DNA of 60,664 bases. Source: a virus (Duplodnaviria > Caudoviricetes). Shown here in pieces: positions 14,863 to 57,184 of the stretch. How positions within the stretch are numbered: position 1 is the first letter of the stretch; the number at the start of each line of letters is the position of its first letter. The stretch covers positions 1-60,664 of IMG/VR virus record IMGVR_UViG_3300021091_000080, one strand, 5' to 3'. Under the pieces are notes generated by a model. It saw only the letters and a list, made by a program, of their open reading frames with translations, did not search any database and was not told where the DNA came from. The position numbers and the translations under genes are program-made.

Positions 14863-17800
14863 TTAAACAATTGTCCACGCACCACCAGTTTCAACGGTGA
14901 CTGAAAATCCAGATTGAATTATTAATGGTCCAGTACTTTGAGCATTTGTACCAGAAGGAATAATTACATTTTGAGAAATTAGATTTCTAGTTACTCTAAT
15001 TACTCCGTATGCATCTAACCAAAGAGGATCTCCATTTACTCTTTGAACGCCAGTGAGATTGATTTCTCCACCAACATCAAGAGTATATTGTGGATTTACT
15101 TTGTTTACACCAACTTTAGACATTCTGTAAATATCTAAAGTATTAGTTGCTTTTGTCCAATTTGAACTAGTTAATGTAGCACCATTTGCTGTAATTGTGC
15201 CACTAAAGTTTACATTACCATTTACATCCAAACTGTACTGTGGATTAGCAACACCAATACCAACTCTAACTTCAGTAACTGCTCCAGCAGGTGCTTTGAC
15301 TGTTAATCCTGGAACGGTAAATGTCGATCCTCCATTTGTTGTAGAAGGATTAATTTCAAAGACATTAGCGTTAGTTAATTCATGACCAATTCTAAAGTTT
15401 TTAGACGTACTAGCACCTAAAAATGTAACAAATGTTCCACTATTATCATTAGCGGTATCTAATTCTAAACCTCCTTCAAATCTACCTTTACCTGCCGCAT
15501 CAAATATAAATCCAGAAGCAGCAGATTTTCCAATTCCAACCAATCCAGTTTGATCAACTACAATTCTTGAAATAGAATTTGTACCAAGAGCAAGACCAAA
15601 TGTTGATCCAGGTGGGTTGAATTCAATATAAGCTTGATCAGTTACATCAATTCTTTGTTGAATTCTTGTGGATGAAGTAGTCCAATCCGCACCATTAGTA
15701 TGTCTTCTTTGCCATACTAATAATCTACTATAATTAGATGAAGTGTTTTCAAAAGAAGCAATATAGGTAGCATTACCAGCAGTAGTTCCAAGTGCTCCAG
15801 AGAAAACTTGAAGTTTGCTGTTAGTAGTTGCTGCCGTAGATGGATTTAAACCAACGCCAACTAAATCACTTGTGGAATTGACTATTAAGGTATTTGTGTC
15901 AACAGTTAAACTGCCAGTTAATGTAGCATTTCCAGTAACACCTAAAGTTCCTCCAACAATTAAATTAGAAGATGCTCCAGTTAAAGTAAGTGAACCAGTC
16001 ATGGTATCACCTGCTTTTAGAACGTTTGCTGAAGCAGCACCAGTTAGATTTGCTGTAATTGTGCCAGCAGTAAAATTGCCGTTTGTATCTCTTCTAACTC
16101 CAGTGTTTGGAGTATTCCCATTATCAAAAGTAATATTGCCAGAGTTCCAAATAGTTAAGTTATTTACAAGTAGAGAGTTTGGATCTGCAACTTTAAATTC
16201 TAAAATACCACTTCCATCAGCAGCATTTCCTCCACGAGCAATGATTGCACTGTTATAATTTGAAGCAGCTAATGCACTTGTTCTAAAGTAAATCGCTGGT
16301 TCAGTGGAAACACCATTGTTTCTACCCATTGTTAATCTGGCAGTTCCTCCAGATACACTTGCAAGTTTTGCAACTTCAAATGTTCCAACAACATCTAACC
16401 AATAATCATCAAAAGGAACACTAGTAGCAGTAGTACCAACTCTAGTAGCACCACTAAATCCTCCATTAGTTAAGACCACATTTAAAATAGTGTAGTCTTC
16501 TGTTGGATCAGTAACATTATTAACAGTAACACTATTAATTGTTAAATTACCAACATTTTGATCTAGATCATTATAAAGATTAACAGCAGATGTTGCAGTA
16601 AATGGATCAGTAACAAGTGCTTGACCAGAAATATAAATGTTAAAAACTGGTTGACTAGTAATCTCTCTAATTGTAATAGAATCTTCAAACTGTTTTGCTT
16701 CTTGGAAAGTGGGTAGGTGTCTATCAATAATTGTACCATAATTTAAATTTAATCCATTTCTATACCAAGTTCCTTGTCTTCCATCAAGACGATCTGCGTC
16801 CAAACCACTACCAGGACCATGATTTCCAGAAGACCATATTTTTGCCCAACTTCCAAAATTAGATACTCCAGATCCTGTACCTCTAAGATACATTGAATTA
16901 TCATCAGCAAATGCTAATTGTCTAACACCACCATAAGTAGCATCAGTTCCAACACCACCATTTCTAATAGAAAGAACCAAATGCTTGCTTCCAGCGACAT
17001 TCAAACCATCTGCTGTATTATCTCTAGTTGCTGCAGTAACGCCCTCTTTAATATCACTAGGAACAGGACTTGTAGTACTATTGGTTGTTAATGTTGTAAG
17101 TCTATCAGCACCACCTTCTGCATTACCAGTAATAGAAATTCTATAAGTTCCAGACAATCTATCTACTGGTAAAATTCCAGCATTTTGGTTTGCGGAATTT
17201 AAGTAATAAGATCCTTCCTCATTATCTAATTTATCCGCATTTAAATTTGATCCAGGACCAGTCTTTAATCTTACCGATCCATCGCCATCAAGACCAAGAA
17301 AGAATTGTGACTTATCAAATCTTCCAACACCTGCTCTTCCATAAGGATCAGCATTGATTGTTTGTGCATCAACTCTTCTAATGTCCATAGCGACATTAGC
17401 ATAATTCTTACTTACTGTATTAATTTTGAATAAAATATTAATACCAGAACCACCAGAAGGAAGTCCAGCAGGTATTGCATTGACACCAAAATCTGAAGTA
17501 TATCCAGAACCGCTACTAGTAATTACAACATTTGAAATAGATCCACTTGTAATTGTAAAATTAGCTTTTAGACCAGTTCCAGTTCCTCCATTTACTTGTA
17601 CATTATAATAAATTCCGTTTGATGAGAAACCTGATCCTCCATTTTGAACGATTGCGCTTTCTACAAAACTTCCCTGAGTGAATGAAGTATCAAATAGAAG
17701 TGGTGATGTTGGTCGTGTAAATTCAATTACTGTACCAGATGGTATAGATGCAGTTAATGGATTATTTAAAGTTATAGTGGTATTACCACCAGTAGTCTCA

Positions 17801-20800
17801 ATACTTTGAATAGTAGTATTTGCAGGAATACCACCAACATTAGCAACAACAGTATGCCCAACTAAAGGTTGACCAGTCGATGCAAATCTTAATGTATTGC
17901 TACTAGAAGATGCAGCAGTATTAGTTATCTCAAAATATCTTGTTTCTGTTCCCTTAACTGATTGTACTACAGGAGCAAATGATTGATCTCCTCTTAAAAA
18001 AGTAAATGAGTTAGCCGCAGTGCTGTCAGAAGAAAGTCTTGCAGGAGAAATAATACCTTCTGTAATATTATCTGCAGAAATAGTCTGAGAAGATAATGAT
18101 ACCCAGTTATTAACATTAGATGCTGAAGTATTAACTACTCTTGTAATATCAACCGCAACACTTGGAGAATCATTTGATTGAATTGTATCTGTATCTTCTA
18201 TCTTGAGGTTGTTGACAACTTTTCCGTATACTCTATTTTCAACTAAAGCACCTGCGGTAGCCTGTGTACCACCAGCCCCTGGAGCTGCAATTGTTACTGT
18301 AGGAACAGCAGTATATCCTTTTCCTCCAACATACCCATTAAATAATGTAAGTTTAACTGTTACAACTTGACCATTTGCAATCGTTGTTGTAGCAAAAGCA
18401 GCGACTGATCCAGCGCCAGGACTTCCTCCACTAATTACAACTGCTGGCGCAGAAGTGTATCCACTACCTGGATTTGTAATATTGATAGTATATACAACAC
18501 CTCTTCTGTGTTCAAGAACTTGCAACTGACCAGTAGTTCCACTGCCAGTTAAAATAGAGTTAGTATTGAAATCTAAAGGATTACCATTAATATCAGTTAG
18601 AGTAATTGGATATGCAAAATATAAACTATCAAGATCATTGTTCAAAATATATGACGTTGATGTATCTTGTTGGATAGCAATATCTCCAGCAAGAGCACCT
18701 TCAATTGCTAATCTTTCTGTTACATTTGCAACGGTATAAACACTAAATGGTCTTAGAGCAGGGATTTGGTCAATAGAAATTTTACCACTATCTGTAAGTT
18801 CTACGAGTGCTCTAGGAACAGCATTTGTTGAGAATGGTTTGTTAATATACTGTCCTAAATTATTTGTAATATAATCTCTAACTGCTTTTTGAGTAGGAAG
18901 TTTTTCATCCGATGAAAAAGCACCACCTAGCGTTGGAGATGAATCAAATCCAGTAACAACAACAGTACCACCTTTCAGTTTTAAGAATTCAACTTCAGAA
19001 ATGCTAACTGTTCCAGTAAATGTGATGGCACCAGTTCTGTTTTCAATCTTTGCAAATGTACCAACTTTAAAGTCCCCAAGTTCATCAGTACCTGAGGTAT
19101 ATACACGACCATATTGTTGTGATACCTGTTCGTATGCTTCAATCTTGACACCACCGTTTTCTGGTAGAGCATTATAGTTTGTACCAGAACCAGCATATTC
19201 CCAAGTATGTCCTGAAGAGTTAACAATCGAAGGTCTGTGCAATTGAATTGCTTTACCGCCTAGTTCTGCGGTCGAAGGAGCAACTACAACATTATCGCTT
19301 TTCCTCTTCAAACTCATTGCTTCATTTACTGTAAATGTAGCAGTATATGGAGCACTAACAGAAATACTGTTTTTATCAATGGATTCAATAAAATATTCAA
19401 TTGCAGGATTATTATTTGTATAATCAGTAAACTTAACAATATAATGCTCTAGAGGTGGTCTTCCAAGACCAGATACCGTAAGAATAGTTCTTCCAGTTCC
19501 TACAGTGGCAGAAACATTAGAAACAGTTCCAATATCAAATTGATATGGATCTCTGCTAAATCCTATTGCTCTTAGAGCATAGATGCCAAAGTTTGTTGCA
19601 GAGTTAGTAATTGAAGCATATCCTCCACTCTCTGATAGTACACCATCAGTACAGAAAATAACGAATACAGAAACTAATTGACAATATCCATCGTTGATTA
19701 CTCTATATCCAGTACCACCAAATGATACAATCGTGAATGCAGAAGCAACCATTGATTTACCCTGATTTGGGAAAGCTGCTCTAGGAGTTCCTCCTGGATT
19801 ATTTGGATCATCTTCTAATCCTGGTCTTGGAGAGTTTGGTTGTTGTACCTTATCACCATCAATTTCACAACCACTTCCTCCAGCAAAAGAAATTATTGAA
19901 GAATTTTGAATATATGGAGATGCTTCAATTACAGGCAAATCATCATAGAATCCCAGAGGTGTAATAAATTTGCCGCTACCATCGCCAACAACATTGTCAG
20001 GATACGTTGGTTGTAAAGTATATGATGTACCATATGTCTTTGTTGTAGCTCCAGGTGCTATAGTTCCATCTAAGATATCTTCTAATAAAGCAAATGAATT
20101 TGTAATTGTGGAAGCAACGTTAGCACAAAGAGTTCCTCCTGATAGTAAAATATTCCAATTTTCATATTTTGTAACTGGAGATGTAAATGTAGTAACAGGA
20201 TCGTAGACAATGATAGTTCCATTTGCTAATGCACTTACAAACGTATGAGTTACTCCTGTAGCAGTACCAGCATCCCCAACATTAACAGTAACAGTAGTAT
20301 TCCCACCAGCAATGCTTACATTTGTAATAGTTAAACTATTTCCATAATTGCGATCTGTTACTGTTGGACTTGCTAAGTTTCCTCCACCATTAGATGGGCA
20401 ACTAAATGTAATAGCGCCCTCTTTAAATGCAATCCTGTGTGATGTTGTTACTGGAGTAGTTGGATTTGCAAAAGTTACGTTAAGAACACCAGTAGTAGAA
20501 TTATAAGTAGCACCTATTGGAGTTGTTGTTGCTACTGTTCCATTACTCCAATTTCGGGTTGATTGAATTGCAAGATCCCTAGCTTTATTAAATGCTGTTA
20601 TTGTAGGAACTAATTCTGCCGAAGGAATTCCAGTTAGTAAACTACCAGTAAAATATAGTTCTGCTGCTGTTACAATACCAGCATTTCCACCCAATACTAA
20701 ATCTCTTCTGAGAGAACGTAAAATATATTTAATATCTCTCTTACACTTGCTTTCATCAAGATAACTTAAACTTAAAGTTGGGAATGAAGTTTTAGCAAAT

Positions 20801-23800
20801 CTTAGCGCCTCATCTGCAATCAAATCAATATTTTTCGCAATTAAATACCCAGCATCTAAGTAAGTACCAGTAGAATTATTTGAAATAATATCAACAAATG
20901 CATAGGAAAGAGTAGTAATAGCAGATGCAACATTAGCACATGCAGGTGAACCTGCAGTTGCTGTAATTACAGTATCATCAAAATACCTGGCAATAGAAGA
21001 ATATTTTGGAATATAAGTTGGATTTCCTACAGTTCCATTTCCAGTCCTCCAGTTTCTCATTGCTAAAATTGCAAGTTCTGTTGCAATTTGAAAAGCTCTT
21101 ACTGTTTCTGTAATTTCATTTGAAATATAACCAATTTGAGTTCCAATTTTATATCTCTCTGCTGCTTCTACGACATTATAATTTCCTCCAAATTCTAAAT
21201 CCATTACTATAGAATTTAAAAAGTGCTTAACATCTCTATAGCACTTTGCATCACCATTTGGAATGTTAAATCCTGGATATAATTTTTCCCCCTGAGAACA
21301 AGATATTAAAAGATTTTCAACTTTTACAACATTACCATTAACAGCTCCAATAGCACTTGCAGTGGTTATTGTTCCTACACCAGTAACATTATTGTACGTA
21401 AAAGCAGTAACAGTATAAGTATTATTATTAAAAGTTACTGTACCACCATTTACATAAGTATGAGCAAAAGCATTTGGTTGAGTATTGATGTCAAAACTAT
21501 TTCCACTTACATTACTTATAGTAAACCATTTTTGTGCAAATTCGTCATTAATTTGCTTTACAGTTTCATCAGAAATAAAATCTAAATTATTTCTAATGTA
21601 AGTACATGCATCTTGAAATCTTCTAGAAACTGGATTAGGAAGTACTAATTTGTTTGGAGAATTTAGAAGAGTTAGAGTTACATAATTTGTATATGCAGTT
21701 ACTGTTGCACCAACAGGTTCTGATGTTCCTGTAAATCCACTTATAATTTTAGGAATTACAAATCTTCTTGATCTACCATCCGCATCTCTTATAACTTTAT
21801 AAATTCTTTGAAGACCGTTCAAAGGAGAAAGTAATCCAGTTAATCCAGCAATCCTTACAATTTCTCCTTCTTTAAATTCATGAAATCCAATTCTTCCTGG
21901 AATTAACTGAGCAGTTTGAACTACAATACCACCCAAGTTTTCACTATTACCAAAGTAAGTACTTTGGAAACCATCATTAAAATCTCCTTGTTGTGATCCA
22001 TCTACCATTGTTATTGGATAACTAGTAGTTCTATTTTTTAATTCTGAAGTTACTTCTCCTTCTGCTCTGATAGAAACGGGAACAATACTTGTAAATTCAT
22101 ATGTTGCAGCTGCATAAGCAATCGCATTTGAAGTGGCAGATACAAAAGTACGAGCAGAAGTATCTGTAGATACACCTAGATTTACTTGGAAAGTATTTGT
22201 ACTTACGTTACTGACACCTAACCAAACTCCACTAATTGTATCTGTTGGTCTTGGGAAAGTTCTAGTAGTAGTATTTCCATCAGAAGCATGTGTAAATGAT
22301 AAAGAATCATTAATAACTTTAATTAAGCTACCATTAGAAAATCCATGATTTGCAATAGTAATAATTGCAATACCAGTTGAAGGATTGTAAGTAACGTTAG
22401 TTGGAGTAAAAAATGTCGGAACATAATAATTGATTGGTTCACTTTGATCAAAACCATCAATAGTAGTTACTGTAGCTTCAACAACACCACTTTGGTATGC
22501 AGTTGGACCACTAACAGCATTAAAAGTTACAGATGTTACTATACCTCTAGCAAAACTGTTTGTTCCAAATAAATCTCTATTTGCTGTTAAATTAGATCCA
22601 CCAGTATTTGAATTGAAAGGAATTCTTACTTTGTTTGCACCAAAGAATTGATGACCAATAGGCCATGATCTTCCAAAATCACCACCAGATGCTGGATCAT
22701 AATAAACTCTTTGTTTATCATCAAATACTACTGCATAGTTCCAAGTATGTACTGGATCATTATTACTATCTACAAGATCTCTAAATGTAATTCCATTGAT
22801 ATAATTTTTGTCTGATAATTTAAAGAAGTGCTTATTAGCGTTTGCAGGACGTACAATAACGAGACGTAAGTTATCACCAATAATTGAACAATCTGGAGGA
22901 ATTGATATAGGGTTATCTTCTACATATTCTCCACCAGCAATAATAACAGTTTCTTTTATTCCAACAGTTGCTTGAGCAATCTGACATGCTCTTTTAATTG
23001 TTCTTACAGGAGCAACTGCAGATCTACCATCGTTATCGTCATCTCCAATTTGTTCAGAAACATACACACGACCGCCAACATCATTTGTTGCTAGATTTAG
23101 TACGTATTCTGTCGTAGCAATTTTATCTGATCTGTCTCCTTGCAAAGGAGTGATAGATCTTGGAAATAAACCAGAATTACCAGAAGTATTGTAGTATGGT
23201 TCTGTTGGTCTGCTTACCCTAAAACCAATGTGCTTTAATTGAACCGCACCATTTAATACAATACCATCTACATGAGTAGGAGGAGTTGTTCCAGTTGCTC
23301 CAGTATTTAAAGCTTGATAGATATTATCTCCATAATATCTATATGGATTATCCCCACTATGAACAATAATTGTATTCGGAACCCAAAGTACTCCTGTATT
23401 ATTTGCATATGTTTTTAAATTTGGACCCCTGAATGCAGTATCAGGGGTAACAAAATTATCAACGTCTAAGTTTAAAACTCTTGCTGTATCAGAAATAATT
23501 GAAGTCGATGTTCTAATTGCACCACTAACATCAAGTTCAAAATCTACAGTATCTAGAAATGCTACAGCAGATGCACCAGCTCCAGGATCTCCTGGTTGTG
23601 CAGTTATAGTTACACTTGGAGCAGTGTCATATCCATTGCCAGGATTATCAACAGTAATAAAGGTGACAGAACCATTTGCTACAATTGCTGAAGCAGTTGC
23701 CTGTACTCCTCCAGTACGATTTGGAGGACCTAAAGTAACAGAAGGAGCAGTGTTGTATAATGCTCCTCCAGAATTTACCTGAATTCTTTCAATTCTTTCT

Positions 23801-23970
23801 CCAGTTCTGTTGATACCAATTCTGGGAAGATTTGTATTTGATAACTGAGCTCGGAAAATTTCTTTTTGATTCGCCCCCTCGCCTGCTCTAATTGTGTAAT
23901 TGTTAGTTCCAATTACAGAAGGATTTGAACCAAGAATAATTTGCTTATCCGAATTAATCTGTAAACTCAT
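14863..23970 (-). CDS. Giant tail fibre / virion structural protein (3035 aa)
   Basis: GxGYxxAPxVTI repeats, CBM-like W...Y motif, beta-helix entry DNDGRSAVAPVRTIKRA, two helical KCxRD repeats, ADxLD fibre motifs, RVGIG repeats; late promoter at 24013-24020. Confidence 0.9.
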   Translation of the reverse strand: MSLQINSDKQIILGSNPSVIGTNNYTIRAGEGANQKEIFRAQLSNTNLPRIGINRTGERIERIQVNSGGALYNTAPSVTLGPPNRTGGVQATASAIVANGSVTFITVDNPGNGYDTAPSVTITAQPGDPGAGASAVAFLDTVDFELDVSGAIRTSTSIISDTARVLNLDVDNFVTPDTAFRGPNLKTYANNTGVLWVPNTIIVHSGDNPYRYYGDNIYQALNTGATGTTPPTHVDGIVLNGAVQLKHIGFRVSRPTEPYYNTSGNSGLFPRSITPLQGDRSDKIATTEYVLNLATNDVGGRVYVSEQIGDDDNDGRSAVAPVRTIKRACQIAQATVGIKETVIIAGGEYVEDNPISIPPDCSIIGDNLRLVIVRPANANKHFFKLSDKNYINGITFRDLVDSNNDPVHTWNYAVVFDDKQRVYYDPASGGDFGRSWPIGHQFFGANKVRIPFNSNTGGSNLTANRDLFGTNSFARGIVTSVTFNAVSGPTAYQSGVVEATVTTIDGFDQSEPINYYVPTFFTPTNVTYNPSTGIAIITIANHGFSNGSLIKVINDSLSFTHASDGNTTTRTFPRPTDTISGVWLGVSNVSTNTFQVNLGVSTDTSARTFVSATSNAIAYAAATYEFTSIVPVSIRAEGEVTSELKNRTTSYPITMVDGSQQGDFNDGFQSTYFGNSENLGGIVVQTAQLIPGRIGFHEFKEGEIVRIAGLTGLLSPLNGLQRIYKVIRDADGRSRRFVIPKIISGFTGTSEPVGATVTAYTNYVTLTLLNSPNKLVLPNPVSRRFQDACTYIRNNLDFISDETVKQINDEFAQKWFTISNVSGNSFDINTQPNAFAHTYVNGGTVTFNNNTYTVTAFTYNNVTGVGTITTASAIGAVNGNVVKVENLLISCSQGEKLYPGFNIPNGDAKCYRDVKHFLNSIVMDLEFGGNYNVVEAAERYKIGTQIGYISNEITETVRAFQIATELAILAMRNWRTGNGTVGNPTYIPKYSSIARYFDDTVITATAGSPACANVASAITTLSYAFVDIISNNSTGTYLDAGYLIAKNIDLIADEALRFAKTSFPTLSLSYLDESKCKRDIKYILRSLRRDLVLGGNAGIVTAAELYFTGSLLTGIPSAELVPTITAFNKARDLAIQSTRNWSNGTVATTTPIGATYNSTTGVLNVTFANPTTPVTTSHRIAFKEGAITFSCPSNGGGNLASPTVTDRNYGNSLTITNVSIAGGNTTVTVNVGDAGTATGVTHTFVSALANGTIIVYDPVTTFTSPVTKYENWNILLSGGTLCANVASTITNSFALLEDILDGTIAPGATTKTYGTSYTLQPTYPDNVVGDGSGKFITPLGFYDDLPVIEASPYIQNSSIISFAGGSGCEIDGDKVQQPNSPRPGLEDDPNNPGGTPRAAFPNQGKSMVASAFTIVSFGGTGYRVINDGYCQLVSVFVIFCTDGVLSESGGYASITNSATNFGIYALRAIGFSRDPYQFDIGTVSNVSATVGTGRTILTVSGLGRPPLEHYIVKFTDYTNNNPAIEYFIESIDKNSISVSAPYTATFTVNEAMSLKRKSDNVVVAPSTAELGGKAIQLHRPSIVNSSGHTWEYAGSGTNYNALPENGGVKIEAYEQVSQQYGRVYTSGTDELGDFKVGTFAKIENRTGAITFTGTVSISEVEFLKLKGGTVVVTGFDSSPTLGGAFSSDEKLPTQKAVRDYITNNLGQYINKPFSTNAVPRALVELTDSGKISIDQIPALRPFSVYTVANVTERLAIEGALAGDIAIQQDTSTSYILNNDLDSLYFAYPITLTDINGNPLDFNTNSILTGSGTTGQLQVLEHRRGVVYTINITNPGSGYTSAPAVVISGGSPGAGSVAAFATTTIANGQVVTVKLTLFNGYVGGKGYTAVPTVTIAAPGAGGTQATAGALVENRVYGKVVNNLKIEDTDTIQSNDSPSVAVDITRVVNTSASNVNNWVSLSSQTISADNITEGIISPARLSSDSTAANSFTFLRGDQSFAPVVQSVKGTETRYFEITNTAASSSSNTLRFASTGQPLVGHTVVANVGGIPANTTIQSIETTGGNTTITLNNPLTASIPSGTVIEFTRPTSPLLFDTSFTQGSFVESAIVQNGGSGFSSNGIYYNVQVNGGTGTGLKANFTITSGSISNVVITSSGSGYTSDFGVNAIPAGLPSGGSGINILFKINTVSKNYANVAMDIRRVDAQTINADPYGRAGVGRFDKSQFFLGLDGDGSVRLKTGPGSNLNADKLDNEEGSYYLNSANQNAGILPVDRLSGTYRISITGNAEGGADRLTTLTTNSTTSPVPSDIKEGVTAATRDNTADGLNVAGSKHLVLSIRNGGVGTDATYGGVRQLAFADDNSMYLRGTGSGVSNFGSWAKIWSSGNHGPGSGLDADRLDGRQGTWYRNGLNLNYGTIIDRHLPTFQEAKQFEDSITIREITSQPVFNIYISGQALVTDPFTATSAVNLYNDLDQNVGNLTINSVTVNNVTDPTEDYTILNVVLTNGGFSGATRVGTTATSVPFDDYWLDVVGTFEVAKLASVSGGTARLTMGRNNGVSTEPAIYFRTSALAASNYNSAIIARGGNAADGSGILEFKVADPNSLLVNNLTIWNSGNITFDNGNTPNTGVRRDTNGNFTAGTITANLTGAASANVLKAGDTMTGSLTLTGASSNLIVGGTLGVTGNATLTGSLTVDTNTLIVNSTSDLVGVGLNPSTAATTNSKLQVFSGALGTTAGNATYIASFENTSSNYSRLLVWQRRHTNGADWTTSSTRIQQRIDVTDQAYIEFNPPGSTFGLALGTNSISRIVVDQTGLVGIGKSAASGFIFDAAGKGRFEGGLELDTANDNSGTFVTFLGASTSKNFRIGHELTNANVFEINPSTTNGGSTFTVPGLTVKAPAGAVTEVRVGIGVANPQYSLDVNGNVNFSGTITANGATLTSSNWTKATNTLDIYRMSKVGVNKVNPQYTLDVGGEINLTGVQRVNGDPLWLDAYGVIRVTRNLISQNVIIPSGTNAQSTGPLIIQSGFSVTVETGGAWTIV

Positions 23971-48830: not shown

Positions 48831-50630
48831 TTACTCTTGGTATGCGGAAAACTTACTATTTTGAATATCTACATCTAGATAAACTTCTCTAGATGCAGCA
48901 ATATCATTCTTTAATGGTTTTACTCTCACTTCAATTCTATTATCATAAAAACTACCTTTGATGATAGTTAGATCATATAACTTAGTCTCGCCTGTCTCAT
49001 AATTAATATCACCAACAAAATCATCAAGAACTATTTTTTCTCCTGATGATGGATCTAATGTATATAGAACAATTTTATTGTTCCTATCTTCAAGATATAC
49101 AATAGAATCTGGGAATTCTAAAACTGTAAAACCACTAGAACTTAAAGTTGAACCATCGCACTCTTTATCAAAAGCGTTTTGATAACAAAGTTCATAATAG
49201 TATGTTGAATTAATAGCAGGATAAAAATCTTTCCTCATCATTACAGTAGTCTCATTAGAATTAATTGATCTATCTACTTCATCAATTACTCCAACAAATT
49301 TACTATATCTAAATTTTCCATTAAATTTTTCGGTATCAGAAGAAGCAATGTATTTTTCAACTCCAGTAATTACCTTATTTCTTATGGCAACAGGAGATTC
49401 TGTAGTTAAAGATGAATTGTAGAAAATTTTTGATGTAAGTTCAACATAAAGAATTGAAGGATTAACGATCTCAAGAGTAACTGATCCAACCATATATGGT
49501 TTAAGTTCATCACGTATTTTTGCTTTTGTTATTGACGATAAACTAGATGCATTAGTAGGTTTGATGGCAATCTTAACTTTGCCATATTCTGGCGGAACTG
49601 CCTCTTCTCCACCAAACACAATAATGTCTGCTACTGCTGGATATACATTTCTAACAATTGCTTCAAAATCAGCAGCATTTACTGCTCTATTCTGTGCTCC
49701 AAATACTCTAGGCGCATTCTTTTTAATTCTATTAATATTTTCTATATTTTCTCCACCTGCAGCAATAGAATTCACTCTAATATTTGATGCAACAATAGTA
49801 TAAGAACTATTTCCAAGTTCATCTTCTAATACACCAGCAAAAGTAAATGTTCTTGCTCCATTACTATCTGGACCATTTGTTACAAGATATGATACTTCTA
49901 CATATTCATTATTTTGTAATTTTCTACCAATAATACTATCACCAAAGAATATTTCATATCTCTCATCTTCAATTTCTTCTACAAAGAAAACTTTTGAGTT
50001 TGGACCAGCACTTAAGATATTTGTAGATAGTTGATATGTTTCATAGTTTGTAGATGCAACAGAAGGATAAACCTTAACTCTAATTGTATTAACATCAACT
50101 CCACTATTTTCCAGTACAAATCTCTGTGATTGAAGTCCTGTATTTACAGTAAAGAAATTTGTGATTACAGTTCCTTCGTAGACATTTACATTTAAAGTAG
50201 TTGTACTAGAATTTACGATCGCTTTCTGATCATTTATTACAACATATTGATATAAGTTATTATCAAATTGACTTACAAATCCAGTTCCTCTTTTCAAGTA
50301 AATTGTACTAGGTGCTGTTCCGCCAGTAAATGTGATATCTACACTAATATTTGCAATCGGCGCAGTTTTTGATTTTGGTCTGTATCCTAATTGTTTTGCG
50401 ATTGCTACTACGTTATCTCTCAATGAAGCAGAATCTAAAAACAGTTCATTTACCACCATATTGGTGTTAAATGCTGTGTAATAAGTATTGTATGCTAATA
50501 CATCTAGTAAAGAACTCCATGCCGATCCCTCAAAGTCAAAATCGGTAAATTCGTTCTGTGCCCTTAGATATTCTCTAAGAGCAATCTTAATGTCTTCAAA
50601 GTCTAGATTTTGTAACTGAGCGTATGGCAT
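48831..50630 (-). CDS. gp6: Baseplate wedge subunit
   Basis: LDFEDIK, DFDFEGS..LLDVLAYNTYY, AQNRAV...D and GGEE..PPEYGKV motifs. Confidence 0.95.
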   Translation of the reverse strand: MPYAQLQNLDFEDIKIALREYLRAQNEFTDFDFEGSAWSSLLDVLAYNTYYTAFNTNMVVNELFLDSASLRDNVVAIAKQLGYRPKSKTAPIANISVDITFTGGTAPSTIYLKRGTGFVSQFDNNLYQYVVINDQKAIVNSSTTTLNVNVYEGTVITNFFTVNTGLQSQRFVLENSGVDVNTIRVKVYPSVASTNYETYQLSTNILSAGPNSKVFFVEEIEDERYEIFFGDSIIGRKLQNNEYVEVSYLVTNGPDSNGARTFTFAGVLEDELGNSSYTIVASNIRVNSIAAGGENIENINRIKKNAPRVFGAQNRAVNAADFEAIVRNVYPAVADIIVFGGEEAVPPEYGKVKIAIKPTNASSLSSITKAKIRDELKPYMVGSVTLEIVNPSILYVELTSKIFYNSSLTTESPVAIRNKVITGVEKYIASSDTEKFNGKFRYSKFVGVIDEVDRSINSNETTVMMRKDFYPAINSTYYYELCYQNAFDKECDGSTLSSSGFTVLEFPDSIVYLEDRNNKIVLYTLDPSSGEKIVLDDFVGDINYETGETKLYDLTIIKGSFYDNRIEVRVKPLKNDIAASREVYLDVDIQNSKFSAYQE

Positions 50631-51022
50631 TATCGGGATCCCTCTAGAAAGAAGTTGATATTTACTGGTCTGTCTTCTCTGCCAATGATTTCAAAAACGA
50701 TTTCAACTTCAAATCCATTATTTACTTCATCAGGAAGTGCATCTACATCAGTAACTCTAATACGAGGTTCGTATCTTCCGAGAACTGTTCTTATCTCATT
50801 TTGAAGTAAAGATGCAGTACCGTAATCTAAAGGTTCAAAAAGTAATCTGGGAATATCACTACCAATACCAGAATTAAAAAATCTTTCTCCTTTGTTTGTC
50901 AATAGCAAATTAACCACAGCCTGTTTGATGGCAGCTTCATCCTTGATTGTGATCAAGTCGCCAGTAACAGGATGTGGTTTAAATGTAACGCTTAAATCTT
51001 TAAACGTCCTGAACGTAGGCAT
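50630..51022 (-). CDS. gp25: Baseplate wedge subunit (GPW/gp25 family)
   Basis: FKDLS..F..HPVT.D, NLLLTNKGERFF and YEPRI; late promoter at 51046-51053. Confidence 0.95.
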   Translation of the reverse strand: MPTFRTFKDLSVTFKPHPVTGDLITIKDEAAIKQAVVNLLLTNKGERFFNSGIGSDIPRLLFEPLDYGTASLLQNEIRTVLGRYEPRIRVTDVDALPDEVNNGFEVEIVFEIIGREDRPVNINFFLEGSR

Positions 51023-51057
51023 TAGTGAAAGACAATATTATTACTTATTTATTGTCG

Positions 51058-51243
51058 TTACTCATGCCATCTTTCAACAAAATCATCAAAACCTCCTTTG
51101 CCACCACAAGGTCTAGAATACCTATTATCTGGAGGAGTATTTGGTTTTTGTTTTTCTATAGGTACATAATCGGTAATTAATCGTTTAGTGCCCCAATTTT
51201 CGTACATATATTTCGCATTTCGATCTACTTGGTACTTTGCCAT
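51058..51243 (-). CDS. Hypothetical protein
   Basis: WGTKRLITDY motif; GGA RBS inside an upstream hairpin. Confidence 0.75.
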   Translation of the reverse strand: MAKYQVDRNAKYMYENWGTKRLITDYVPIEKQKPNTPPDNRYSRPCGGKGGFDDFVERWHE

Positions 51244-51296
51244 CTGTTTTTTCCAATTAAGGTTAAACAGAACTTTTTACGGGGTTGCTATCCCGC
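51243..51296 (-). ncRNA. Candidate structured 5' leader / cis-regulatory RNA
   Basis: Two hairpins after the late promoter ATTAAATA (51304-51311): cggg/cccg, and tctgttt/aaacaga, which encloses the RBS and the A of ATG. Confidence 0.4.
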
Positions 51297-51310
51297 CTAA
51301 AACTATTTAA

Positions 51311-51457
51311 TCAGTTTCCTTGTCCGCGATAACGCTTCTTACGACCATTACGAGCTGTTGCACCCAAATGAGTATTCTTAGAACGACCCTGACGAGTTTT
51401 CTTTGGGGCTCCCTCAATGTAATTAGATTTAACAAGACCAATCTTTGATTTTGCCAT
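51311..51457 (-). CDS. Small highly basic protein (48 aa)
   Basis: Hand-called: MAKSKIGLVKSNYIEGAPKKTRQGRSKNTHLGATARNGRKKRYRGQGN; late-promoter-like ATTAAATA at 51464-51471. Confidence 0.8.
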   Translation of the reverse strand: MAKSKIGLVKSNYIEGAPKKTRQGRSKNTHLGATARNGRKKRYRGQGN

Positions 51458-51493
51458 AAATTTTATTTAATGAACTATAATATTATACAAGAA

Positions 51494-51838
51494 TTATTTT
51501 TGACTGTCAATCAGTACAGTCGTTGCTCCAAATGCTGCTACTTGTCCTGCAGGACCCACAGGACTTGTTAACTCACTACCAATATATGCCATTGGTTTTT
51601 TGTCCACAAATACTGTCGGAGAACCAGTTGAAATTGTGTCTGAGTGAAGGTCAGGAGGCGTTGGAAGCATCGAAAAATGTGGTAAGGTACTATCCCCTAC
51701 CCTATGTACATTCTTGCCCTCTATAAAGACCCCTTCTGATGCTCCTGTTGGAGGTGCCTGATACCCGACAGGAGGCCAAGGACCATGCCCTGTTGTCATA
51801 TCAGCGGGAGAATACAATGCTGGAACTGTATTTGACAT
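51494..51838 (-). CDS. PAAR-like spike tip protein (gp5.4-like)
   Basis: TTGHG.WPP, VFIEGKNVHRVGD...H and H...ISTGSPTVFVDKKPMAYIG; His metal ligands. Confidence 0.85.
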   Translation of the reverse strand: MSNTVPALYSPADMTTGHGPWPPVGYQAPPTGASEGVFIEGKNVHRVGDSTLPHFSMLPTPPDLHSDTISTGSPTVFVDKKPMAYIGSELTSPVGPAGQVAAFGATTVLIDSQK

Positions 51839-52702
51839 TTAGATACCTGGCAATAAACCACCAAACGTTCTTCTATTTAATGCGTAACGTAATCGTTCCT
51901 GTGCTGCTTTTTTATTATTTTGCACTGTCATGTGCGCGGTAAATGGAAATGTTCCGCGATTACTAATAATATTTCCCGTAAAATAAAATCGAAGTTTTTT
52001 GATCTCCGATGGTTTGTAGGATATTACTCTTTCAGACAAGAGTATATATGACTGCATTACTTCAGGACCGTATGTATATGCGGCAGCAATCGACATAGGA
52101 TAAAAATTATTCACATTAATCCCCGCTGGAATTATACCAGTCAGAGTCTCTAAGAAATTCACAGACTTCACAAAACCTTTCTTATCTCTAGTAAACCGAA
52201 TACCAGTAGCACTAAACTTCGCAATCGCATTCTCGTACTGTAAAATCCACTCCTGATCATAAAAGTTTCTCTCAGTAAAATAACCACTTACAGATACTGT
52301 AGGACCAGACGGTGTAATAATTACAAATGGCTCTACAAACAATGGAGGCGCCCAATATGGTGTCACAGGTATCTCAAACTCAGTGTCCTGCGATCGAGTA
52401 ATATCTGCCCCTGGCAATGGTTCCTCAAGTACGCATGAATTCATTGTAAGAGTGATTGCTGTGATAACCTCTAATGGATCAGTAGGAATTGCCGAAATTG
52501 TTAGACTAAAGTCCTGATACGGTGAAATATAGTCATTGCTATTCGCTATCTCTCCATCCTGCAGTAATCTTGCAATTGCTGCAGGTCCGAGTGTTGGTTT
52601 GAACTCATACTGACTGGAAACCACCCCACTCAGTAAAGTTCTAATTGGTGGAGTGATCGGTGGTATTCCAACGGTTATATTATCTGTCAGTAATGTTGCC
52701 AT
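51839..52702 (-). CDS. Hypothetical protein (287 aa)
   Basis: Long ORF abutting its neighbours; no recognised motif. Confidence 0.75.
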   Translation of the reverse strand: MATLLTDNITVGIPPITPPIRTLLSGVVSSQYEFKPTLGPAAIARLLQDGEIANSNDYISPYQDFSLTISAIPTDPLEVITAITLTMNSCVLEEPLPGADITRSQDTEFEIPVTPYWAPPLFVEPFVIITPSGPTVSVSGYFTERNFYDQEWILQYENAIAKFSATGIRFTRDKKGFVKSVNFLETLTGIIPAGINVNNFYPMSIAAAYTYGPEVMQSYILLSERVISYKPSEIKKLRFYFTGNIISNRGTFPFTAHMTVQNNKKAAQERLRYALNRRTFGGLLPGI

Positions 52703-52917
52703 TATCGTGTCGCTAAACGATATACATCTTCCTTCACTCCTTCAATATTATTATGAAGATAATCTAAAGTATTTGATAAACTTTCGTAATCCTCTTTTGT
52801 TGGACGCTTATACATTAATTGAAAAGGAATTGGAATTTGTTCCACTCGCTTCTCTAATGCTTCGATCCTACTCTCCAATGAATTCAGCTTTTCCAAAATC
52901 TTCTGTGTCAAATCCAT
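52702..52917 (-). CDS. Hypothetical coiled-coil protein
   Basis: Coiled-coil followed by LMYKRP...LDYLH. Confidence 0.75.
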   Translation of the reverse strand: MDLTQKILEKLNSLESRIEALEKRVEQIPIPFQLMYKRPTKEDYESLSNTLDYLHNNIEGVKEDVYRLATR

Positions 52918-53104
52918 TTGTAACCTTCTCTGTTCTAGTCATATTATCATAAAGCGTTTCAACATCATACTGTGGCGTATTCACACCATTTGCATAATAG
53001 TCAAGTGCCATATCTTCGATGGTCTCGGCAAATTCGTTGAAATCATCAAACAGTTGCTCTTTGAGTGTACCGTCTGGTGTTTTAATCTTAATCCTGTGCT
53101 GCAT
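52868..53104 (-). CDS. Hypothetical acidic protein
   Basis: ORF track; overlaps the next gene by 50 nt. Confidence 0.65.
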   Translation of the reverse strand: MQHRIKIKTPDGTLKEQLFDDFNEFAETIEDMALDYYANGVNTPQYDVETLYDNMTRTEKVTNGFDTEDFGKAEFIGE

Positions 53105-53246
53105 AACTTTTTTTACCTTTTTTTACCTGGGGAAATTTTTTGAATAGATGGGAACCCATTATCTTAAATGTCTCTCCCACACATATTGAAATATACCAAA
53201 ATTCATCGAACGGCGTTATCGTCGTCCCATAAATCGACTTTTTCAT
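53088..53246 (-). CDS. Hypothetical protein (52 aa)
   Basis: Hand-called: MKKSIYGTTITPFDEFWYISICVGETFKIMGSHLFKKFPQVKKGKKSYAAQD; late promoter GATAAATA at 53291-53298. Confidence 0.6.
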   Translation of the reverse strand: MKKSIYGTTITPFDEFWYISICVGETFKIMGSHLFKKFPQVKKGKKSYAAQD

Positions 53247-53339
53247 ACTCTAATACCCACGGAAATTTTTTATTTCGGGTTCCTTTGAAATATTTATCGG
53301 TCGTCTGGATACTTTTGTAGGTTAGAGAGGGTCAAATAT

Positions 53340-53402
53340 GGGACCCGCTCGGCCCCGCCGATCGGACGGGTAGGGGGGCATTATACTGTCCCCCCAGGGG
53401 GG
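53340..53402. other. GC-rich structured element at the early/late junction
   Basis: Nested stems acccg/cgggt and tcggc/gccga; G6/C6/G6 tracts around a minus-strand TATAAT at 53380-53385. Confidence 0.55.
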
Positions 53403-53564
53403 TCACCAACGCTGGCGATCGTAGCAGGCATCTGCCCAACCGTCACGCTCCCAGCGGCGGGCATCGAAGTCGTCTGCATCCATCAGGTCGTCGTGCTCAC
53501 AGTCCAGAAAGCGGTCATCGTACTGGGGGGCGAACTGGGAGCGGTAACCTTGGGAAGTGGTCAT
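53403..53564 (-). CDS. Early-type acidic hypothetical protein (53 aa)
   Basis: Hand-called: MTTSQGYRSQFAPQYDDRFLDCEHDDLMDADDFDARRWERDGWADACYDRQRW; directly after a promoter module. Confidence 0.75.
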   Translation of the reverse strand: MTTSQGYRSQFAPQYDDRFLDCEHDDLMDADDFDARRWERDGWADACYDRQRW

Positions 53565-53591
53565 GGGTTGTTTCGTTTGGTTGATGTGATC

Positions 53592-53650
53592 AGTCTACAG
53601 GGTCAGGGCATCTGGCAGGCGCCAGGGAGGACACTGTTGTAGGTGTCACA
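53592..53650 (-). promoter_or_regulatory. Early promoter module copy 1
   Basis: -10 TAGACT at 53592-53597; inverted repeat at 53627-53650, inside the upstream CDS. Confidence 0.75.
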
Positions 53651-53779
53651 GCGGCGCTCGGTGGCAGCGTTCACGCTCTGCACGGTGTCAGCAGCGAACT
53701 CGATGACAGCAGCGCCAGCAGCAGTGATGGGGGCATAGAAGGCGGCGCCGAGGGCAAGGGTGAGGATGGTCTTGGGCAT
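53603..53779 (-). CDS. Small secreted or membrane protein (58 aa)
   Basis: Likely start MPKTILTLALGAAFYAPITA, downstream of the promoter; signal-peptide-like. Confidence 0.7.
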   Translation of the reverse strand: MPKTILTLALGAAFYAPITAAGAAVIEFAADTVQSVNAATERRCDTYNSVLPGACQMP

Positions 53780-53801
53780 GGGTCGTTTGCTTGTTGTGGT
53801 T

Positions 53802-53861
53802 AGTCTACAGGGTCGGTCGGTCGATTTGGGGTCAGGTGGGGACAGTGCCCCAACCGTCACA
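53802..53861 (-). promoter_or_regulatory. Early promoter module copy 2
   Basis: -10 TAGACT at 53802-53807; IR at 53838-53861. Confidence 0.75.
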
Positions 53862-54030
53862 GGATCTGCAGGTCGTCAAGGATCACCCCATCCTTGCGGA
53901 TCTCAGCGTAGACGAACTCGTCTGCCTTGATGGCGAGCAGGCGCTGCGCCTCTGCCCAGGTCTGGCAGTCGATGGATTCCCAGGGGTCAGACGGGACGAA
54001 GACGGTGAAGCGGGTTTGGTTGTTTTTCAT
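53857..54030 (-). CDS. Hypothetical protein (57 aa), probably leaderless
   Basis: Hand-called: MKNNQTRFTVFVPSDPWESIDCQTWAEAQRLLAIKADEFVYAEIRKDGVILDDLQIL. Confidence 0.75.
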   Translation of the reverse strand: MKNNQTRFTVFVPSDPWESIDCQTWAEAQRLLAIKADEFVYAEIRKDGVILDDLQIL

Positions 54031-54036
54031 GCTGTC

Positions 54037-54094
54037 AGTCTACAGGGTCGGGGGGCAGCGTTGCCCCCTGGTGGACACCTCACAGGGTGACCAT
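54037..54094 (-). promoter_or_regulatory. Early promoter module copy 3, with GC hairpin
   Basis: -10 TAGACT at 54037-54042; stem gggggca/tgccccc at 54051-54068; degenerate IR at 54071-54094. Confidence 0.7.
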
Positions 54095-54337
54095 CATGTC
54101 CACCATCTCCTGGGCGTCGATCTTATCGTCATCCCACGCTACGCCGTCGGGGGTCTGCCCGAGCATCCGCCCGATCTGTCCCTGCATCATGCAACGCTGG
54201 AACTTCTGCCAGGGGGTCTCGTTGTCACCGCAGAAGGTCACACACGCCTTAGCGGTATTGTAGAGGAACTCATCGTTCTGCATCCAGAGGGAAGCGTTCC
54301 AGGTCTCGTAGTTTGCCCAACCGTTGTAGGTCGTCAT
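54080..54337 (-). CDS. Conserved phage hypothetical protein (YNGWxNYETW family)
   Basis: YNGWANYETWNASLWMQNDEFLY...TPDGVAW. Confidence 0.85.
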   Translation of the reverse strand: MTTYNGWANYETWNASLWMQNDEFLYNTAKACVTFCGDNETPWQKFQRCMMQGQIGRMLGQTPDGVAWDDDKIDAQEMVDMMVTL

Positions 54338-54364
54338 GGGTTGTCTCGTTTGGTTGATGGGTTT

Positions 54365-54423
54365 AGTCTACAGGGTCACGGTCTGGTGGCGCTGCAGGAG
54401 TGTGCGGTTCACCCACTGTCCCA
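54365..54423 (-). promoter_or_regulatory. Early promoter module copy 4
   Basis: -10 TAGACT at 54365-54370; degenerate IR at 54400-54423 inside the CDS. Confidence 0.65.
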
Positions 54424-54613
54424 GCGAAGCGCCAGGGTTGACCATCAGGCGTAGCATGTCACGACGGCGGCAGTCATGGGCGGTCACGCTGCCCGAGTGC
54501 CACTGCACAATGGCACGACCAGTCAGTGGCGACAGGATGACACGCTCACAGGCAGACGATGGGCGCTGCACGTTGATGAAGACGGGCAGGTGATCGATGG
54601 CGAAGTCCAGCAT
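54368..54613 (-). CDS. KTSC-like small protein
   Basis: SSA...AIVQWHSG...ASLGQWVN pattern; the fold call is tentative. Confidence 0.65.
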   Translation of the reverse strand: MLDFAIDHLPVFINVQRPSSACERVILSPLTGRAIVQWHSGSVTAHDCRRRDMLRLMVNPGASLGQWVNRTLLQRHQTVTL

Positions 54614-54634
54614 AGTGTGGTGGTTGTTGTGGTT

Positions 54635-54694
54635 AGTCTAGAGGGTCAGGGGGGAGAATGGGGGCATCTGGTGGACACCCCCTACACTGTCACA
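54635..54694 (-). promoter_or_regulatory. Early promoter module copy 5
   Basis: -10 TAGACT at 54635-54640; IR at 54671-54694. Confidence 0.75.
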
Positions 54695-54887
54695 TCCCGT
54701 TCAGGAAGTCGTGCAGATCCTCCCTATACTCTGCTTCGGTCTGATAGGTGCGACCGTGGATCGTGCGAGGGTAGGTCGCCACAGGGGCAGGCGCCCTGCT
54801 GGGTTCCTTGCCCTGGGAGAGGATCTGAGCAACGTAGGGGTTCACGTCGTAGATCTCGCCAGGCATGTCTTGGATCTCATCCCACAT
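54690..54887 (-). CDS. Hypothetical protein
   Basis: MWDEIQDMPGEIYD...; lies between two promoter modules. Confidence 0.75.
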   Translation of the reverse strand: MWDEIQDMPGEIYDVNPYVAQILSQGKEPSRAPAPVATYPRTIHGRTYQTEAEYREDLHDFLNGM

Positions 54888-54915
54888 AGGTTTGGTTCGT
54901 TTGGTTGATGCTGTT

Positions 54916-54974
54916 AGTATGGCACCCCTTGGTGGGGTTTGGGGCAGTTGGTGGACAGTGCCTCAGGTGTCACA
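54916..54974 (-). promoter_or_regulatory. Early promoter module copy 6
   Basis: Extended -10 TGcCATACT (hexamer 54916-54921); IR at 54951-54974. Confidence 0.75.
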
Positions 54975-55530
54975 GTCCTTTCTCTTCAAGAATAGGGGCG
55001 ACAACCTCACGAAGGAATGTAAAGTATTCGTCAGATGTGAAGGGGGCATCGATGACAGCGAGCAGGTCATTCACGCCCCAGACGTTCATACCTTTGTTGG
55101 CATACTTTGTCTGCTCACTGTTGCTCACTGTAGCGACGACAGGTACAAAGTAAGCAGCATAGATGTTGCCGAGGTGAGAGGCAATGGCATTTACTTTGTC
55201 ATTGCTAGCACGAATCTTCTCGCTGTCAAAGTTAAGATTGCACTTGCTCTCCAGGTAATAGTTCTGGGCATCAATCTTAAACAAGTGATCAATCTGGCGT
55301 TGGCGACCGTTAATGTCGAGCAGGTTCGATTCTTCGATCAGGTTGTCTGCTTTACTGTCGCTAATCACTTGATTCCAGAAACGCTCAATCCGCTCACCAA
55401 ATGCAATCAGAATAGATTGGGGAGAGATACGGTCATCGAGACCAAGTGCCTGCAGGATGTGAGATTCAGTTTGCTTTGGTTCAATAGAGAGAACCAGGGG
55501 CAGCAGGTTGGATTCGAGGTAGGCGGTCAT
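54970..55530 (-). CDS. PD-(D/E)XK restriction-endonuclease-like nuclease
   Basis: FGERIE helix followed by QIDHLF...YLESK (D...E-x-K). Confidence 0.7.
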   Translation of the reverse strand: MTAYLESNLLPLVLSIEPKQTESHILQALGLDDRISPQSILIAFGERIERFWNQVISDSKADNLIEESNLLDINGRQRQIDHLFKIDAQNYYLESKCNLNFDSEKIRASNDKVNAIASHLGNIYAAYFVPVVATVSNSEQTKYANKGMNVWGVNDLLAVIDAPFTSDEYFTFLREVVAPILEEKGL

Positions 55531-55551
55531 GGGTTGTTTGCTGATGTGGTT

Positions 55552-55611
55552 AGTCTACAGGGTCAGCGAGCGATCAGGTCGCCTGTAGTGTACAGTGCGT
55601 GAGCTGTCACA
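55552..55611 (-). promoter_or_regulatory. Early promoter module copy 7
   Basis: -10 TAGACT at 55552-55557; IR at 55588-55611 inside the CDS. Confidence 0.75.
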
Positions 55612-55688
55612 CTGCGGACAGGGGCAAGCGGTCCCCACAGTAGGATGACCGCTGCACAGATGGCGATGGTACGCATGTTCTTTTTCAT
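55563..55688 (-). CDS. Small membrane peptide (41 aa)
   Basis: MKKNMRTIAICAAVILLWGPLAPVRSVTAHALYTTGDLIAR; TGATG-coupled to the upstream ORF. Confidence 0.7.
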   Translation of the reverse strand: MKKNMRTIAICAAVILLWGPLAPVRSVTAHALYTTGDLIAR

Positions 55689-55849
55689 CAGTGGCGATCG
55701 CTGATGTTCCAGTTGGTGATGGGGGCAGGCACAGGGCGGATGCCTTGGCGGATCTCCTGGCGGATCTGCTCCTCGCGGATCACCTTGGCGGTGTACTCTG
55801 CCATCACGGTGGCGAGGAGTTCGTCGTGGGTCATCTTGGTTTTGTTCAT
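55688..55849 (-). CDS. Hypothetical protein (53 aa), probably leaderless
   Basis: Hand-called: MNKTKMTHDELLATVMAEYTAKVIREEQIRQEIRQGIRPVPAPITNWNISDRH; short IRxx tandem repeat. Confidence 0.7.
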   Translation of the reverse strand: MNKTKMTHDELLATVMAEYTAKVIREEQIRQEIRQGIRPVPAPITNWNISDRH

Positions 55850-55855
55850 GCTGTA

Positions 55856-56677: not shown

Positions 56678-56697
56678 AAAATCTCAGGAACAAATGT

Positions 56698-56931: not shown

Positions 56932-56933
56932 AA

Positions 56934-57180: not shown

Positions 57181-57184
57181 GGAA

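Follow-up and report, generated by a model that had tools for sequence, protein, structure and literature searches.

Phycobiliprotein-like domains in a giant tail-fiber-type protein of a T4-like cyanomyovirus

We analyzed a 60,664-base stretch of viral DNA (IMG/VR record IMGVR_UViG_3300021091_000080, estimated completeness 31%), hereafter the window, by which we mean the whole stretch. It forms part of a T4-like cyanomyovirus genome and encodes, on its minus strand, a giant tail-fiber-type protein of 3035 residues (14863..23970, from the open reading frame and its translation). Within this protein lie two helical domains that, on the evidence of sequence profiles and predicted structures, are very probably two copies of a module of ~165 residues descended from the phycobiliprotein branch of the globin fold. 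The module corresponds to the phycobiliprotein core, with helices from about phycobiliprotein residue 32 to the end, and beta domains are spliced into two of its loops. To our knowledge, phycobiliproteins are known solely as light-harvesting antenna parts of cells and organelles; here the fold, with the residues of its pigment site intact, appears as a widespread building block of cyanophage tail-fiber/baseplate-type proteins, represented by 1376 protein clusters and, by BLAST, by 363 of 50,697 phage records. Whether the module is still a bilin-attachment site that carries a bilin is, judged from sequence and model, an evenly poised question. An earlier description of such domains was not found in the literature we searched (titles and abstract beginnings), and the available portions of PMC3037559, PMC2984593, PMC6628666 and PMC10452541 are silent on them.

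Relationship of the two domains to phycobiliproteins

The segment under study covers residues 782-1300 (519 residues). Searched with phmmer against 177,635 PDB sequences, it returned phycoerythrin alpha as its top match (E 0.0016), in an alignment that extends from the F-P end of a helix across K-C-x-R-D and G-G as far as G-x-P. In relatives from IMG/VR these two domains are free of beta inserts and form uninterrupted units of ~165 residues, and a profile built from 11 such insert-free copies retrieved 52 rows from the PDB sequences at E <= 10 (best E 2.6e-4), the top 31 of which are all phycobiliproteins and 45 of which are named as such. When 38 phage copies were compared by hhalign with 10 phycobiliproteins from one Synechococcus genome, the two sets matched at 95.3% probability (E 2.4e-8, 97 columns), with the phage C-R-D falling on C82-R84-D85 and an invariant phage tyrosine on the Tyr of the phycobiliprotein E-x-Y. 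This match reaches past the motif itself to take in the first helix pair, E-x-Y and G-x-P.

Structure prediction was carried out with AlphaFold2 on an insert-free copy, using no templates and an alignment of phage sequences only, and gave a model of six helices (predicted local distance difference test score (pLDDT) 89.7, predicted template modeling score (pTM) 0.88). Comparison of this model with 48,161 PDB chains by VIA-align placed phycobiliprotein-family chains at all of ranks 1-8 (Z 16.4 to 12.0), led by phycoerythrin beta (5aqd_M; Z 16.4, root-mean-square deviation (rmsd) 2.0 A over 143 residues) and including ApcE domains (Z 14.3-13.0), allophycocyanins (Z 14.2-13.4) and phycoerythrin alpha (Z 12.0); the next family consists of RsbR-type sensor globins (Z 11.4), and hemoglobins score Z 6-9. 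Foldseek agreed for the same copy, with phycobiliproteins in 41 of the 42 rows listed (template modeling score 0.59-0.69, best E 1.8e-3), and for a 546-residue model of the window's own two domains it gave a phycoerythrin beta chain as the top row and phycobiliproteins in 21 of 46 rows, while a search of the ESM Atlas yielded no usable match. The initial annotation, made from the sequence alone, had proposed a globin-like phycobiliprotein fold and had named a predicted fold outside the globin class as the result that would tell against it; profile, hhalign and fold search instead converge on that very fold.

Set beside the phycobiliprotein alpha and beta subunits (CpeA/B, CpcA/B, ApcA/B; PF00502), the phage domain has the globin-like core in common, and the motifs that align are K-C-x-R-D of the bilin site with its downstream G-G, the F/Y-P at the end of the helix before it, E-x-Y and G-x-P. 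The phage domain differs in lacking the X-Y hairpin that builds the alpha-beta monomer, in having a longer loop before the last helix, and in its setting, since it occurs in tandem inside viral proteins of 1,000 to 7,900 residues and with beta inserts. The core-membrane linker ApcE (4xxi, 7eyd, 7sc7, 9wg7) likewise holds a bilin-binding domain of this fold within a large multi-domain protein. ApcE belongs to the cellular phycobilisome and has a single domain of this type, whereas the phage proteins carry arrays, and it attaches its bilin autocatalytically at a differently placed cysteine. Non-heme and sensor globins, comprising the RsbR N-domain (3zta/2bnl), globin-coupled sensors (4uiq/4zva) and photocobilins (8j2w), show the same globin-like architecture at Z 11.4 to 9.1, but with an rmsd of 3.0-3.5 A as against 2.0 A for phycobiliproteins, and they gave no match in the sequence searches of the PDB with either the phmmer segment or the 11-copy profile.

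Three phycobiliprotein motifs had initially been recognized in the right order. Of these, the helix ending in F/Y-P and the K-C-x-R-D with its downstream G-G carry the statistics given above, and the third, a likeness of C-A-N-V-A-S around the second cysteine to the beta-155 sequence G-D-C-S-A-L, does not. A local profile comparison between the C-terminal part that holds the second cysteine and phycobiliprotein C-termini gave P 0.38 for all subunits and 0.12 for beta subunits only, and we dropped this likeness as evidence; what agrees with the beta subunits is position alone, namely a cysteine immediately before the last helix.

The relationship has its discordant points. The PF00502 match of the window segment falls below the family cut-off (E 0.018; 15.4 vs. 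22.2 bits), the N-terminal X-Y hairpin is missing (the model aligns from phycobiliprotein residue 32-34, hhalign from column 37), the phycobiliprotein-invariant L90, R91 and Y95 are not retained, and Asp57 and Asn63, both invariant in the phage domains, have no phycobiliprotein counterpart. Among the 11 insert-free copies, 4 match PF00502 at E <= 1 (best E 0.0015; one printed score 15.8 bits), a related phage contig scores 17.8 bits, also below 22.2, and a six-frame PF00502 search of the genome returned nothing in the window at E <= 1. Where copies stand in tandem, the preceding domain ends where the next one starts. From these profile and model comparisons we read the domains as distant homologues of phycobiliproteins that lie outside the curated family PF00502.

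The two domains are homologous to one another (phmmer domain E 7e-14 and 7e-15), and a hidden Markov model (HMM) search found just these two copies of the module in the window. The AlphaFold2 model of residues 775-1320 (546 residues; pLDDT 87, pTM 0.87) bears out the original description of two helical repeats in a beta-rich protein, each repeat showing the helix order 2+1+1+1+1. Domain 1, delimited by model helices and by matches to HMM A2, spans residues 780-1029 with its beta insert (20884..21633; minus strand, as for all features of this protein) and has helices at 6-19, 22-36, 133-153, 157-164, 176-197 and 236-255 in model numbering. An all-beta insert (residues 815-898; 21277..21528; model strands 41-124) occupies the loop between helix 2 and the cysteine-bearing helix, and is missing in the relatives L021, L023, L029 and L030. 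By its alignment to C82-R84-D85, C910-Y-R912-D913 (21232..21243) is the equivalent of the phycobiliprotein bilin site Cys84-x-Arg86-Asp87, and the second conserved cysteine of this domain, C1011 (20938..20940), located by codon position, lies immediately before the last helix, at a place where all 38 insert-free copies have cysteine.

Domain 2, delimited by model helices and by the phmmer match to phycoerythrin alpha, spans residues 1035-1300 with its insert (20071..20868), and has helices at 261-272, 274-288, 296-319, 323-330, 343-364 and 506-526 in the same numbering. Its bilin-site equivalent is C1076-K-R1078-D1079 (20734..20745; from the codons and the alignment to phycoerythrin alpha), and its all-beta insert (residues 1146-1255; 20206..20535; model strands 372-481) sits in a different loop, the one preceding the last helix, and is missing in L009, L010, L021 and other relatives. 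The second conserved cysteine, C1282 (20125..20127; from codon position and model), again stands immediately before the last helix. The four cysteine codons (21241-21243 for C910, 20938-20940 for C1011, 20743-20745 for C1076 and 20125-20127 for C1282) fall exactly where they were first placed, and all peptides quoted at that stage are present in the translation. As a separate observation, the 546-residue model also draws F1-ATPase chains in Foldseek, over 69-86 columns and at probability 1.00; these matches are perhaps of the N-terminal beta-barrel type.

Conservation of the site and the viruses that carry the module

Searching 1.84 billion representative proteins with a profile, we recovered the module in 1376 clusters at E <= 0.001, 938 of them at E <= 1e-10, with up to 35 matched stretches in some proteins and 2 to ~34 copies per protein. 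We compiled site statistics from 1608 copies in 149 listed representative proteins. Of the 1474 copies that align at the site cysteine, 98% retain it; the arginine (95%) and the aspartate (99%) are likewise conserved, and further downstream an aspartate is kept in 98% and a tyrosine in 99% of aligned copies. Three metagenomic proteins of 4,800-6,400 residues (P0124, P0126 and P0127) carry 30-34 copies with one cysteine per repeat, and in some of these copies the motif is C-x-E-D or C-x-Q-D rather than C-x-R-D.

Among the phage records searched, the carriers of the module are all cyanophages. A tblastn search of the window segment against 50,697 phage records matched 363, all cyanophage or marine (by name, 289 Synechococcus, 59 Cyanophage, 14 Prochlorococcus and 1 Marine), and a multi-copy protein searched against the same records matched 251, again all cyanophage or marine virus. 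As a control, a baseplate protein from the window matched 2244 T4-like records of many hosts, including 591 Escherichia, 308 Klebsiella, 374 Synechococcus and 61 'Cyanophage'. Among predicted viral structures there were 23 matches at E <= 0.001, and every named one belongs to a Synechococcus phage.

Searching 185,579 species genomes with the 11-copy pattern, we obtained 4 loci, all on contigs of metagenome-assembled genomes (MAGs) that resemble mis-binned phage, one of these contigs being phage-like, 194 kb long and binned with Synechococcus; within the reach of this pattern search there was no sign of a cellular version of the module in these genomes. Contigs bearing the module are also filed under MAGs of Verrucomicrobiales, Proteobacteria TMED61, Rhodobacteraceae and Nanopelagicaceae (L117, L118, L119 and P0198), and these are most likely mis-binned phage DNA.

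CpeT, light-dependent adsorption and the question of a bound pigment

In phycobiliproteins, the arginine and aspartate of the site hold the propionate and the pyrrole nitrogens of the bilin. The phage module could work in a corresponding way: a bilin made by host or phage would be joined through a thioether bond to the cysteine of K-C-x-R-D, and the arginine and aspartate would hold the propionate and pyrrole nitrogens. Attachment might be performed or assisted by a phage lyase of the CpeT family (T-type bilin lyases, PF06206), the presumed partner, possibly at the second cysteine before the last helix, the place at which T-type lyases act in phycobiliprotein beta subunits. The pigment would then make the fiber light-responsive and underlie the light-dependent adsorption of S-PM2, P-HM1 and P-HM2.

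To relate the domain to cpeT, we searched 23 complete phage genomes with profile A2 (E <= 0.001), which marks the domain, and with PF06206, which marks CpeT; the set consists of the 16 cyanomyoviruses of PMC3037559, the podovirus P-SSP7 and six phages chosen before the outcome was known. The domain is present in 13 of the 16 cyanomyoviruses and missing from P-SSM2, S-SM2 and S-SSM7. Pfam detected CpeT in 11 of the 16, and in P-SSM7 and S-ShM2 cpeT is annotated in the records (T4-GC 338). The supplement of PMC3037559 likewise lists T4-GC 338 in 13 genomes, with P-SSM2, S-SM2 and S-SSM7 left blank. In the available text of that paper and in its Table 3, 12 of the 16 cyanophages have cpeT and Syn1 has none, in conflict with the supplement (12 vs. 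13), and we note that Syn1 has a clear cpeT at 19938-20477. Outside the 16, P-SSP7, S-CRM01, P-TIM68 and S-TIM5 have neither the domain nor CpeT, and S-SCSM1, S-CAM7 and S-WAM1 have both. Domain and cpeT are thereby concordant in 23 of 23 genomes (both present in 16, both absent in 7), or in 21 of 23 by our own Pfam search alone.

The phylogenetic spread of these genomes bears on how many events they represent. In a first sheath tree, P-SSM2, S-SM2 and S-SSM7 form one clade and count as one event. A second sheath tree, covering 20 phages and the window (S-ShM2, whose sheath frame is cut, was left out), requires at least 3 changes, with S-CAM7 as sister to P-SSM2 (support 100) and S-SCSM1 grouping with S-SM2 and P-TIM68. 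The gene for the domain and cpeT are 30 kb apart in S-CAM7 and ~90 kb apart in S-SCSM1, and at such distances physical linkage does not account for the two occurring together in these phages. A further 80 IMG/VR contigs with a P-SSM2-type sheath are all fragments of <=66 kb and unusable for scoring presence or absence, and cpeT was not found in the window, whose record is only ~31% complete.

We also examined where cpeT lies. In S-PM2, Syn1 and S-CAM4, members of the clade that includes the window phage, it precedes by 0.3-1.5 kb, in the same orientation, a domain-packed fiber gene (3779-4057 residues, annotated 'short tail fiber' or 'tail protein'; T4-GC 734), and the space between the two is taken up by tRNA genes and/or a 2-oxoglutarate (2OG)-Fe(II) oxygenase gene, the oxygenase being found in S-PM2 and Syn1. 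Match positions give the same order in ACG-2014e, S-CAM1, S-CAM3, Sf-FR1, S-RIM44 and S-H9-2, and in P-SSM7 and S-ShM2 cpeT has a tail-protein gene on one side and gp5 on the other. The RefSeq entry for S-PM2 (NC_006820.1, 165928-177267) shows sixteen tRNA features that are drawn inside the giant fiber coding sequence and share its locus tag, which looks like a coordinate shift in the annotation.

Published adsorption phenotypes offer a second comparison. According to the available part of PMC6628666, adsorption in the dark fails for P-HM1 and P-HM2 and takes place for P-SSM2 and the podovirus P-SSP7, and the available part of PMC2984593 describes light-dependent adsorption for several marine cyanomyoviruses. 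P-HM1, P-HM2 and S-PM2, whose adsorption requires light, have the domain, and the dark-adsorbing P-SSM2 and P-SSP7 lack it, a 5 of 5 match that we regard as a lead, not a test.

Several observations pull away from a pigmented fiber. CpeT of P-SSM7 and S-ShM2 missed E 1e-3 in the Pfam search, and cpeT in these two phages is taken from annotation and the PMC3037559 supplement. All 3 independent pairs of the second sheath tree are concordant, yet a two-sided sign test yields only p 0.25, since significance is out of reach with 3 pairs. P-SSM2 and S-SSM7 carry pebS and ho1 (table of PMC3037559) but lack the domain, so that these two genes need another explanation there. The same supplement shows no proteomics flag for T4-GC 830, 734 or 507. 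At the level of single copies, one in L038 has lost K-C-K-R through a 5-residue deletion, and one in L035 has Phe in place of the site cysteine. The adsorption match has n=5 and includes two near-identical phages and one podovirus, and colored cyanophage particles are not reported in the titles and abstract beginnings that made up our literature search.

The alternative that stands up best is a pigment-free structural module, which we consider possible while leaning against it. The compact helical core of a phycobiliprotein, whose gene would have been captured in the distant past, would now be only a rigid bead for long fibers, in which C-x-R-D, Asp57 and Tyr73 form a buried polar network that allows chromophore-free folding, and cpeT would serve host phycoerythrin, with its link to the domain due to shared ancestry or chance. 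Arrays of up to ~34 tandem copies per protein do resemble a spacer or ruler, and the domains accept large beta inserts; the loss of the X-Y hairpin and of several phycobiliprotein-invariant residues, the missed PF00502 cut-off, the nonsignificant cpeT association and the lack of recorded colored virions in the titles and abstract beginnings searched all fit such a bead as well. Against it, retention of a lone cysteine at 98% together with the arginine and aspartate at 95% and 99% would be unusual for mere packing. The bead likewise leaves unaccounted for the 23 of 23 concordance with cpeT, which includes sister pairs differing in both genes at separations of 30-90 kb, and the position of cpeT among tail/baseplate genes or directly before the fiber gene. 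Even if no pigment is bound, the module would plainly show how a protein of host photosynthesis has become part of the architecture of a virion.

Some other chemistry of the cysteines is improbable in our view. The initial annotation had offered a Cys-Cys disulfide as the alternative to a bilin. In the window's subfamily there would be one such disulfide per domain, stiffening a particle that is exposed to oxidizing sea water outside the cell; in single-cysteine copies, the cysteine would form inter-chain disulfides or bind a metal along the fiber axis. Such a bond is possible in the window's own two copies, because in its subfamily the second cysteine is invariant (38/38) and the first nearly so (37/38), and the 3035-residue protein has just 12 cysteines in all, 4 of them in the two domains. 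As a general explanation the disulfide fails, because most copies outside the window have the first cysteine alone: just 280 of 1608 copies align at the place of the second cysteine, 77% of those with Cys, and among the 261 copies that can be compared at the two positions, both cysteines occur in 187, the first only in 71, the second only in 2 and neither in 1. Arrays follow the same rule, with 34 of the 48 cysteines of P0124 (6382 residues) being site cysteines, one per repeat. Cysteine chemistry of this kind also leaves the Arg-Asp conservation and the cpeT link unexplained, and the modeled fold would put the second cysteine far from the first if it occupies the phycobiliprotein beta-155 place.

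A helical bundle without common descent that converged on K-C-x-R-D...G-G, with AlphaFold2 drawn to the phycobiliprotein fold by the motif, is scarcely credible: the single-sequence and Pfam scores are indeed marginal (E 0.0016; 15.4 bits, below the cut-off) and the Foldseek E is only ~2e-3, but the hhalign match covers 97 columns and reaches beyond the motif, the structural match (Z 16.4, rmsd 2.0 A over 143 residues) was obtained without templates and from a phage-only alignment, and the domain is confined to viruses of phycobiliprotein-bearing hosts. We also considered that the domains might imitate phycobilisome subunits, as a mimic or decoy directed at the host antenna, and set this aside, since they are found in fiber-type proteins located outside the cell and lack the X-Y hairpin by which phycobiliproteins pair.

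On the reading in which the module carries a bilin, the domain offers a concrete, testable substrate for phage cpeT, whose role the available text of PMC3037559 calls 'unresolved', and a candidate molecular basis for light-dependent adsorption. With pigment bound, virions would be colored and possibly fluorescent and light-responsive, with a bearing on oceanic diel infection rhythms, and the domains would provide new small bilin-binding scaffolds. Light-gated adsorption by a pigmented fiber is, all the same, rather unlikely in our estimate. We grade as no less doubtful the fuller picture in which fibers and baseplates of most T4-like cyanophages bear CpeT-attached bilins on domain arrays, so that the particle is itself a photoreceptor whose fibers change state in light; were it true, it would explain both the carriage of cpeT and an adsorption in S-PM2, P-HM1 and P-HM2 that requires light independently of host photosynthesis.

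The fiber gene and its surroundings

The 3035-residue reading frame matches PHROG phrog_5342 'tail fiber protein' over its full length (E 0, 3859 bits) and, by its N-terminal sequence, is the orthologue of S-PM2p088 (T4-GC 830). Its large homologues number 569; among those with a name, the nearest is a 'tail fiber-like protein' of Synechococcus phage S-CAM4 (54% identity over the segment), and a megablast search with 4 kb of the fiber gene against phage records gave no match. Baseplate wedge genes lie on one side of the gene and neck genes on the other, with terminase, sheath and tube genes also in the neighborhood, and both sequence and gene position place the protein among the giant tail-fiber-type proteins of T4-like cyanophages (phrog_5342; T4-GC 830). 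Going by family names and gene position, its location is probably the virion. In the sheath tree, the window phage clusters with S-PM2 and Syn1 (support 100/100).

Between the fiber gene and the neck genes we observed a 2OG-Fe(II) oxygenase gene (PF13759; 9947-10483) and a tryptophan-halogenase-like gene (PF04820; 11138-12499), and the oxygenase might modify fiber proteins. Elsewhere in the window, the interval 52000-56000 stands out by its G+C content (0.46-0.55, compared with 0.29-0.40 in the rest) and holds only short overlapping open reading frames on both strands. The frames tested from this interval had no PHROG or Pfam match, and an Rfam scan of 50500-60664 found no family; possible explanations for the interval are inserted foreign DNA, a non-coding element and a join made during assembly. 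Finally, both flanks of the domain pair resemble a right-handed beta-helix of the pectate-lyase type (22765-23085, residues 296-402; and ~19850-19990, residues ~1328-1450), as if the helical and beta region were an insertion into a beta-helix, an arrangement suggested by PHROG matches at residues 282-402 and by inspection of the sequence.

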